Shown one piece after another: positions 32,901 through 35,158 of a stretch of 64,000 nt of DNA. Below the pieces are notes generated by a model. That model saw only the letters and a list, made by a program, of their open reading frames with translations, did no database searches and was not told the DNA's origin. Source of the DNA: Pocillopora damicornis (taxonomy: Eukaryota); assembly GCF_003704095.1 (NCBI RefSeq), contig NW_020845377.1, positions 1 through 64,000 on the forward strand. The letters are read 5' to 3'. The position numbers and the translations under genes are program-made. Positions within the stretch are counted from its first letter, which is position 1. Each line of letters opens with the position of its first letter.

Positions 32901-35158
32901 ATAAGTCACTCTGAGGCGACGAGGCCTCCTTGTAGAGCACTAAACCTCGCCGAGATTGATTGTAATTGACTATGAATCGCAGTCAATACACTTCGCTGCC
33001 TTACAAATCGGACGATGTCCTACGAAGAAGGTGGGCACTTGAGATGCCCTGTAGTATGGGCGAGCCCTAACACAGCTGAAGTCAGCGTTTAAGCGAGTCA
33101 ATTCTCTTCTTTGCTTCCTAATTCTCCTAACACTGATGTTACATTATGGTGTAAATTTTCGTCAAAAAATCGGCACCAAGCACAGCTACTAAAAACCAGC
33201 CAATCACTGCGGAGCATAGTTATTCTTAAGTGGACAGGTAACCAGTCGATCTAATTCTCTGCAGAAAACTGGCGGTGTACAGTCGTAACGTAGAGGAAGT
33301 ATGTACAAAAGAAAAAAAAAAAATTGAAGATCTGTAGGTAATGTTTTCTGTTACCAGTTTCAGCAAAGAAAATGAGAGAGGAGAACGCTACACCACGGAA
33401 ACGTTGACAAAGAAGGAACAATTTAACATTTTATACGATAACAGGTACGACTATTTTTCTAATATTAAAAGTGTTTAAGATACCTAAAGCATACCCGAGA
33501 ATAGCGATTCCTTGAGATGATGAATTTTTTGTTTTGTCTTTTTCAAAACAGGGATTTTATGGATTCCTATGACCAGTTTGCGGATGATGACGAGATCAAA
33601 GAGAGTGACAATCCGCTCTATTGCAGCAGGTCAGAAATGCAGTAGTACCGTCCCTAACCATAAAAGATCTTTAATTTGGTAACATCATAGATAGTTTTAA
33701 TGGACCAAATAGCTTAATTTTTGCCACGTATTAGTCCTGCTTCATGTATTTGTCAACGATGACGTCCCAGTGTGCCTCATCATAGATAGTTTTGATGGAG
33801 CAAACAGTTTATTTTTGCCACGTGTCAGTCCAGCTTTATGTATTTGTCAAAGATGATGTCTCTGTATAGTATGAACAAAAAGAGGCTATAATGAAAAAAA
33901 TAGGCCTCGAGGTGAATCGTAAATGTGACAGAACCCCAAAGCAGTCCTCCAAAGAAATCTTGAAGGATGAAGTACACATTAACCATACTTATAAAAATTA
34001 TGAAATCAGTGAGAATCACCGGAAACGCTTTGTTGCGGTGCGTTTGTTCACTATTGACACATGAAGCCAAAACGAAAAAACAGGTATTTAATGTGAACAC
34101 TTGCCTATCAATACCGTGGCACGGGCTCGATTCCTGTACTTAGCATTACTAGTGGGTTGCGTTGCCTTTGGTTCTCGCCCTTAAATCCACGGCGTTTCTG
34201 TAGGCTTACTGCTTTCCTGCCTTCCACAAAAGTCAACTATCCTAATTCTAAAGAAACAGTGACAAAGAAGAGCTATTTTGTAAATGCGCGTGGCTTAATT
34301 TGATTTATTTTAATGCTTTATCAAAAGTGTAGTATATATAAGAGTCGAGCTAGTGTGTCGCTGACCAAATACTCTGTGATCTGCAAATGATAAAATAGAG
34401 CGATACTCACGTTTCCAATTCTCCTATCCCCTTCAGCATCGAAACTGGACAAGACGAAAAAGAGAACATTTTGTACGAAAGGTAAATACCTTAAACAATT
34501 ATCACAGCTGTTCTGTTCTTCTAGTTAGTTTTTTTGCGTGGCATGACTTGAGTGATTATCTCGTTCCAGCATGGATGATGTTTTAAAAAGTGTAGAAGAG
34601 GCTGAATGCATCAATCCGGTGTATGAAGGGTCAGTGTTGCAGTTCTAAACGTATCCTTGGTTTAATTTGCTGCCATGCATGATTGGGGAGGAAGTTGCGT
34701 TGTAAGAGAATACTTGGATACATATGCACCCTACTAGAACCTCAGTTGATGATAACATAATATTGATCTATAAAAATGTTTCTTCTTTAAATCGAGAACA
34801 AACTTATCGCACTTGTTTCAAGCTGGGTTTCGCTACCTTATACGGGCAAAGATTTGTCACGATCATACTCATACAAGACATTGTATAATCTCTTGCTCTA
34901 TATAGACCTTACGCAACGATTCCACCATGCAGTAGTAACATAATTCATTTCATTGGATTAAACAGGAGATCACACCTTATTGGTCCAAGGTTGAAAGAAA
35001 AAGTCATCCAAGAGTGAATTTCATCATGTGAAATTATTTCAATAAATACATTTTTTGATGTTAATAAGTTAAACAAAAGCGCGATTAAAGGGAAGGAAAG
35101 AGTAATTAATAACATTTTTAAACTGCCATTTTTTTCTCTTGATTCCAGGATGGTCTAA
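26937..35158 (+). CDS. Receptor E: signal peptide + ApeC + CUB + long Thr-rich stalk + TM + Tyr-motif tail
   Basis: Exons 26937-27024 (probable SP exon, less certain), 29482-30135 (ApeC), 30900-31274 (CUB), 31531-32155 (stalk + TM IIVALIASLAALAVVVTVALVCL), 32541-32648, 33358(or 33364)-33444 (NILY), 33552-33629 (NPLY), 34437-34481 (NILY), 34570-34629 (NPVY), 35149-35158 (GMV*). Confidence 0.86.
28569..28677. repeat. Short tandem repeat of about 26 bp (GTAAGGGCCTAATTGGGCCTAAATCT), 4-5 copies, in intron 1 of receptor E
   Basis: Direct repetition is visible. Confidence 0.85.
33682..33862. repeat. Degenerate tandem duplication of about 95 bp in an intron of receptor E
   Basis: CATCATAGATAGTTTT.ATGGA...TTTTTGCCACGT...ATGTATTTGTCAA.GATGA occurs twice. 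Confidence 0.8.
34118..34250 (+). mobile_element. Degenerate tRNA-derived SINE fragment
   Basis: B-box-like GGCTCGATTCC followed by GTGGGTTG...TTGGTTCTCGCCC...TTTCCT...CCACAAAA, resembling a SINE central domain; recognised by eye only. Confidence 0.5.

Follow-up and report, generated by a model that had tools for sequence, protein, structure and literature searches.

Corals and sea anemones manage dense microbial partners, and few of their surface receptors have been tied to a signalling route. Proteins with an ApeC domain, among them amphioxus ACP1, ACP2, ACP3 and ACP5, oyster CgACP1, snail BgACP1 and the apextrins, have so far been studied as secreted binders; in the portions of these accounts at hand, the domain has eight cysteines, is accompanied by a CUB domain in amphioxus ACP5 (PMC8361754) and binds peptidoglycan in amphioxus and molluscs (PMC9585378), and an immune cell type of Stylophora is noted to secrete ApeC proteins (PMC8162421). 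PMC9585378, citing a survey that may list the architecture described below, also places ApeC in membrane-bound proteins; our literature search listed no paper on receptors of this architecture; the available text of PMC13278318 and PMC13319465 does not mention ApeC. Among receptors with tyrosine tails, excerpts from the literature report that the NPLY motif of CD200R, a non-ITIM receptor, recruits Dok2 (PMC13613202) and that Botryllus FcoR3 and FcoR4 swap motifs through splicing and intron retention (PMC9546547, PMC12582321).

The 64,000-nt window, the whole stretch of DNA analysed here, holds four tandem genes on the + strand (C, D, E and F), and its proteins find matches among stony-coral proteins. 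The products of D (18371..25246; 594 aa), E (26937..35158; 746 aa) and F (38092..47801) run, in order, through a signal peptide, an ApeC domain, a CUB domain, a Ser/Thr-rich stalk, one transmembrane helix and a tail, which is spread over four exons in D, five in E and five visible exons plus a gap-hidden one in F, followed by a last exon. ApeC lies at 20403-21038, 29482-30135 and 41218-41862 in D, E and F, respectively, CUB at 21565-21942, 30900-31274 and 42756-43100, and the stalk with the transmembrane helix at 22471-22891, 31531-32155 and 43537-43840; the signal exon of F occupies 38092-38179. These domains exceed the Pfam cut-off, ApeC (PF16977, about 200 aa) with 225-258 bits and the whole profile matched, and Pfam searches of the three ectodomains returned ApeC, CUB and ShK only. 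Eight ApeC cysteines are present in each protein; exact DxED motifs number three of three in F, one of three in E and none of three in D, and known binders deviate too, according to the accessible parts of PMC9585378 and PMC8361754. Judged by domain and cysteines, D, E and F are ApeC-containing proteins, and they share the CUB domain with ACP5. However, the ACPs studied are secreted and have a C-terminal ApeC, whereas in D-F the domain is N-terminal and belongs to a membrane-spanning protein that has a stalk and a tyrosine tail. A search for a relative of these ApeC domains with a solved structure found none. In a profile search of representative proteins, cubilin-like proteins dominate among the matches listed (8 of 150), and the automatic names of all named homologues are uninformative or wrong. 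A ShK-like domain precedes ApeC in E (28735-28845) and occurs in its Stylophora orthologue; it is absent from the Montipora and Acropora E-type proteins examined. An inverted, open second copy of the F CUB exon (45608-46069, - strand, 93% identical) lies amid gaps and other duplicates, the RNA contigs carry two F variants and one Stylophora model contains two F-type units; the assembly may have merged two paralogues or haplotypes into F. Elsewhere in the window, the first exon of an alpha-L-fucosidase gene (54421-61594) places about 470 Lys/His/Ser/Arg-rich residues between signal peptide and catalytic domain, and a degenerate tandem repeat array (2595-3389) has units of about 70-75% identity.

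Gene C (13166..17387, + strand) encodes a signal peptide, an ectodomain with ten cysteines (14070-14393), a Ser/Thr stalk with a transmembrane helix (14721 or 14852 to 15164), three tail exons and the last exon, and its tail joints are present in RNA contigs. The Pfam search found no ApeC in C and no family for its ectodomain, which is single-copy, with no paralogue in the genome and no match in the PDB; a Pocillopora verrucosa protein matches it at 97% identity, and across coral families the identity is 59-73%. For homologue P0074, the atlas top match of 0.93 carries PF15024 on 12% of members, a weak lead to the MGAT5 family, and the structure model of the ectodomain (pLDDT 36) was unusable. 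The short isoform of C has 315 residues identical to a 319-aa P. verrucosa protein. In the long-stalk form the frame shifts relative to P. verrucosa proteins at 14828-14832, in a run of A, either an assembly slip or a null allele; the short form (acceptor 14852) is intact.

The initial annotation had noted a C-terminal motif split by the last intron at the same position in C, D and E, and its coordinates and phases are correct. The penultimate exons end at 16839, 24689 and 34629, and coding resumes at 17378-17387 in C (NHVYD|RLV-stop), 25237-25246 in D (NRRYE|QLL-stop) and 35149-35158 in E (NPVYE|GMV-stop), all on the + strand; the three last introns are phase 2 with GT..AG borders and split a common pattern, Y-[DE]-x|hydrophobic-x-stop. 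The ten nucleotides had also been taken for the entire terminal exon, which they are not: they are no more than the coding portion at the head of a long exon that continues as 3'UTR, followed in RNA contigs to at least 17647 in C and at least 26279 in D (about 1 kb of 3'UTR). We checked the joints in RNA contigs from four runs of four studies. The last joint of C was found in three of the four runs and that of D likewise in three, while in the fourth a loose end extends into D's last exon. None of the RNA-contig matches listed contained the E joint 34629|35149 (two comparisons, one of them swamped by repeats), which is not evidence of absence, and the joint preceding it, from the 34437-34481 exon onward, is present in three of the four runs. 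We infer the last joint of E from the DNA and from orthologue ends, which read NPVYEGMV in Montipora foliosa and M. capricornis and NPVYEGLA in Acropora; together with the like end predicted for metagenome locus L040, they support it well, if indirectly. RNA run X9 joins 34629 to 34791 with one letter between, and reading on gives a 50-residue end lacking the terminal motif; the window has no AG at this joint, pointing to an allele, a paralogue or a contig artefact. On the + strand of the window, a pyrimidine-rich acceptor leads into a single base, two hydrophobic codons and a stop at three sites, which are exactly the C, D and E ends; the - strand has one such site. The rule was picked after the sites were known.

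For F, a 10-nt last exon had been predicted in a gap after 47801. Its place is confirmed, as RNA run X1 links 47802 with 48319, four letters intervening, so that the last exon begins at the end of the gap 47883-48318; its length is likely. The end reads Y-E-R-M, and the window letters past the gap add L-stop, giving ten coding nucleotides at 48315..48324 (+ strand; first bases in the N gap, start approximate; R-M followed by L or P), but the contig taken literally has a 16-nt coding part. The Stylophora F orthologue ends YERVP. No second copy of the sequence 3' of the gap was found. The idea that F is short of two further E-type exons, raised by the fused Stylophora models P0001 and P0010, was dropped because X1 joins 47802 directly to 48319. 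Public models (P0001, P0010, P0022, P0038 and P0273) fuse adjoining genes of the cluster, probably because gene finders overlook the last exon's ten coding nucleotides.

Going beyond the initial annotation, we found that the split is repeated exon by exon along the tails. Each of the 17 visible internal tail exons in the count is phase 2-2, and its length is a multiple of three. A tyrosine lies one or two codons from the exon end in 14 of the 17 (shuffle mean 3.4), and N-x-x-Y occupies that place in nine (shuffle mean 0.37); none of 100,000 shuffles reached either count. An E candidate exon of 36 nt (32732-32767), skipped by RNA contigs in three of four runs, was excluded from all counts. On the + strand, such exons end in N-I-L-Y-A (C, 16400..16447, 48 nt, phase 2-2, seen in RNA contigs), N-P-L-Y-E (D, 24502..24549, in RNA contigs), D-N-P-L-Y-C-S (E, 33552..33629) and N-I-L-Y-E (E, 34437..34481), where the next exon supplies S-M and completes the first YxxM; a 42-nt exon of F ending NPLYE, in the gap between 44711 and 47104, is known only from X1 and X10 contigs. 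The penultimate exons, also on the + strand, end in N-H-V-Y-D (C, 16780..16839, 60 nt), N-R-R-Y-E (D, 24636..24689, 54 nt, in RNA contigs), N-P-V-Y-E (E, 34570..34629, 60 nt, in RNA contigs) and S-S-L-Y-E, without Asn at -3 (F, 47745..47801, 57 nt). As exons end just past the tyrosine, most sites draw their Y+2 and Y+3 residues from the exon that follows, and the last exon contributes ten coding bases as a stub that completes the final site of the series; we propose that this is why their number is kept. With these penultimate exons, the last two aligned tyrosines lie 18-20 residues apart in C-F, and 16-22 apart in homologues. Alignment of the C tail with E-type tails beats all 500 shuffles in one of four pairs tested, and common descent of the two is suggested mainly by exon layout. 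A protein search with the tail as sole query returned only the query itself, and two tight DNA patterns matched one genome site each, which gives no measure of how common such exons are.

Tyrosine motifs were counted in 20 tails with 135 tyrosines, comprising the four window tails and 16 hand-picked homologues, about one per gene and taxon. Read as descriptions, since the tails are related and hand-picked and shuffle statistics overstate their independence, the counts are 46 for N-x-[LVIM]-Y (shuffle mean 2.1), 32 for NPxY (0.5), 53 for Y[DE] (23.9), 11 for YxxM (3.7) and 38 for Yxx[LIV] (19.3). The commonest site is NPLY; NPLY or NPVY occurs in D, E and F, and C has N-x-x-Y only. Residues upstream of the sites are mostly acidic in a position profile computed with the frame-broken C tail. 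YxxM occurs twice in E, the second copy completed by the last exon, and once at the F end, as read from an RNA contig. There was no enrichment of YxN (12 vs. 12.0 in shuffles) or of ITIMs (8 vs. 4.7, p 0.10), to which none of the C, D and E terminal motifs conforms, and hemITAMs were absent from the 20 tails. The terminal pattern had been described as N-x-x-Y-x-x-Phi-Phi; its tyrosine and hydrophobic part holds, as Y-[DE]-x-hydrophobic-x closes 13 of the 20 tails, but its asparagine does not, being found at -3 in seven of those 13. By comparison of these ends, the Asn is dispensable, as it is absent in F and several orthologues. The seven tails lacking the pattern include that of F in the window, cut by the gap, and some doubtful gene models. 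As anticipated, the paralogues differ at the terminal site, with Leu at Y+3 in C and D and Met in E and F, and the reading of C-F as single-pass receptors with tyrosine docking motifs holds.

We consider it probable, judging from predicted domains and motifs, that C, D, E and F are phosphotyrosine docking receptors and that D-F sense microbial cell wall through ApeC. Points against this reading are the absence of ApeC from C, the seven of 20 tails without the terminal pattern, Phe or Ser at Y+3 in a second ApeC-CUB locus, the inexact DxED motifs (all three in D, two of three in E) and the ability of NPxY to bind PTB proteins without phosphate. The ApeC domains of D, E and F would bind a microbial cell-wall sugar, and the acidic tyrosine sites would be substrates of a Src-type kinase; as the short motifs suggest, PTB adaptors would then dock on N-x-L-Y and SH2 proteins on Y-[DE]-x-L/M. 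Acidic N-x-L-Y-E fits substrates of Src-type kinases that bind IRS/Dok-type PTB domains, and YxxM, the consensus for PI3K p85, is often paired in co-receptors that recruit PI3K. The spacing of the last two tyrosines would suit a tandem-SH2 protein, candidates being PI3K p85 for the two YxxM sites of E and an SHP-type phosphatase for the Leu sites. The sign of the signal, as well as regulated use of isoforms, would be further elements of the model, and uptake of microbes downstream of phosphorylation would be compatible with it.

Receptors of an endocytic or phagocytic kind, in which Dab/CED-6-type adaptors would dock on unphosphorylated NPxY and AP-2 on the terminal YxxPhi to internalise bound microbes or debris, offer another explanation, which we regard as unlikely. 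YxxPhi occurs 52 times, against 26.3 in shuffles, and in 19 of the 20 tails. With eight matches to IRS-type PTB, 14 to PID and a marginal match to PF16454 (p85 iSH2), the genome makes both signalling and endocytic adaptors available. The endocytic signal of the LDL-receptor family requires an aromatic residue, [FY]xNPx[YF], however, which is present at none of the 32 NPxY sites and in none of the 20 tails. Dileucine is not enriched (1 vs. 2.3 in shuffles), an ITAM occurs in one of the 20 tails (shuffle p 0.18) and in none of the four from the window, and acidic N-x-x-Y sites, as many as four or five per tail, exceed what sorting needs. The consulted portion of PMC8092387 indicates that NPxY is able to bind PTB proteins without phosphate, and that CED-1, with one NPxY and one YxxL, may work unphosphorylated. 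Taken together, tails rich in N-x-L-Y and Y-E-x-M/L and lacking [FY]xNPxY and window ITAMs favour phosphotyrosine docking by PTB and SH2 proteins over plain endocytosis.

Considerably less probable still is a role in adhesion or recycling, with C-F as mucin-like stalked surface proteins whose N-x-x-Y motifs bind FERM-type proteins (talin, kindlin, SNX17) and not signalling adaptors. FERM-type proteins do bind N-x-x-Y motifs, which occur in all 20 tails, and a Ser/Thr-rich stalk and a CUB domain are present. However, SNX17 prefers a hydrophobic residue two before the Asn of NPxY, found at only two of the 32 sites, and neither Glu/Asp at Y+1 nor the kept Met/Leu at Y+3 would be explained.

Tails of this type are conserved from Pocillopora-type corals to Nematostella vectensis, where XP_032230669.2, an ApeC-CUB-transmembrane protein, ends NPLYERVL. 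C orthologues end IPLYDRLV in Oculina, IPLYDRLA in Orbicella and SDYERLV and PTYERLV in Porites, and the Stylophora D model ends SRHYEQLL. YESM of E is conserved in Montipora, Acropora, Stylophora and P0009, and an E-type locus in a metagenome from another coral (L040) has the same five tail exons, including that at 33552..33629, with the same ends and phases, and a predicted end NPVYE|RFA-stop. In the genome of the window, a second ApeC-CUB locus (G000:C2740) has a gene with tail exons ending NPIYE and NPIYD at phase-2 donors and a 10-nt end, S-F-T-stop at 91603, predicted from DNA; for the related L060, L062 and L063 the predicted ends are S-S-S or S-S-T. Such 10-nt ends with any residue are expected by chance at 0.28 candidates per kb. 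From these predictions the exon boundary seems to be kept even where Y+3 is not a hydrophobic residue of the usual kind (Phe or Ser in G000:C2740, L060, L062 and L063). The second cluster (G000:C2740:68000-92000, L080-L082) comprises four genes in which the ApeC exon is split; at least three of them also encode CUB and contain a transmembrane or stalk exon, one has a tyrosine-exon tail and one looks broken. A relative, P0247, has a tail of few residues, as in paired or decoy receptors.

Annotated isoforms that alter or remove the terminal motif, a feature absent from the initial annotation, are found in four genera; they are mostly automatic annotations, and contig depth cannot give isoform shares. 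Among the 15 Pocillopora C records listed, 12 end in YDRLV, two in YDR and one uses a second acceptor (17437, + strand), which leads to YDSC and a different, motif-less end and matches protein P0082. One of four Oculina isoforms ends LYDR and one skips internal tail exons, omission of the penultimate exon creates a new end, NVLYV|RLF, in two of five Porites lutea isoforms, and two D-type isoforms of Acropora digitifera diverge past NPLYE. The last introns of C and D are also seen unspliced among RNA contigs. Read-through stops at once at eight of the 17 tail donors, including that of the C penultimate exon, because a phase-2 GTRA/GTAG donor spells a stop. Splicing could switch the docking sites of C-F tails. 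Alternatively, the 10-nt end could be an inherited boundary without a role of its own and the motif-losing isoforms splicing noise or annotation artefacts, which we judge improbable. Paralogues inherit intron positions, the short C isoform needs no selection where the donor consensus itself spells the stop, Ser stands at Y+3 in L060, L062 and L063, and motif-less ends are a minority of the Pocillopora C records (three of 15). Against this, a hydrophobic Y+3 and a tyrosine fifth from the end are kept in C, D, E and F types and in Nematostella, in tails that otherwise barely align. PDZ binding by the C-terminal ends was set aside because position -2 is R, Q or G.

Returning to phosphotyrosine docking, a wider reading is possible but tentative: stony corals and sea anemones may possess a family of transmembrane peptidoglycan receptors in which every tyrosine site straddles a phase-2 junction, such that exon skipping, a second acceptor or read-through would rewrite Y+2/Y+3 and thereby change the SH2 partner, amounting to a junction code that tunes the response to bacteria, with the tail cassette also shuffled onto the unrelated C ectodomain. 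If true, cell-wall recognition would be coupled to kinase signalling through a membrane-bound ApeC protein that has several tail tyrosines and no ITAM, ITIM or TIR domain, and the split motifs would give splicing a simple, testable way to retune a receptor. With the Nematostella member, the idea can be tested in a genetic model.

Kinship with LRP1 or CED-1/Draper, raised by the initial annotation, finds no support in the ectodomains, nor in tails that lack the aromatic residue and, in the window, ITAMs; by predicted domains, D-F are not CED-1/Draper, LRP or Ig-type immunoreceptors (absence of Ig by Pfam only). Members of the LDL-receptor/LRP family feature LA, EGF and YWTD repeats. E-type and Nematostella tails resemble theirs in overlapping NPxY and YxxPhi, but Pfam finds no LDLR-family domain in C-F and no aromatic residue precedes NPxY. 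Like CED-1, Draper and MEGF10, tails of the cluster combine NPxY (D, E and F) with YxxL, and the available part of PMC8092387 describes a Draper splice isoform with another tyrosine motif, a likeness to the C-F isoforms; unlike them, C-F lack EMI and EGF/NIM repeats (Pfam) and have several N-x-L-Y sites instead of one, and the ITAM of Draper and MEGF10 is missing from the window tails. Hydractinia Alr and Botryllus FcoR are likewise clustered invertebrate receptors with tyrosine motifs, according to the sections seen of PMC9546547 and PMC12582321, but they are Ig-fold proteins with ITAM, ITIM or hemITAM, motifs absent or unenriched in the ApeC-CUB proteins D-F. The tail of PECAM-1 is, in the excerpt of PMC5664058, encoded by eight alternatively spliced exons, and loss of exon 14 removes SHP-2 binding; PECAM-1, however, has Ig domains and ITIMs and loses the motif-bearing exon, whereas C-F junctions would rewrite Y+2/Y+3. 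With CD200R the C-F-type tails share NPLY, their commonest site, although its ectodomain is Ig and we saw no homology to C-F. To our knowledge, CD200R has no terminal YxxM/L stub exon. By analogy, D-F would work most like CD200R, with docking at NPLY, crossed with PECAM-1 or Botryllus FcoR, with their spliced tyrosine tails.
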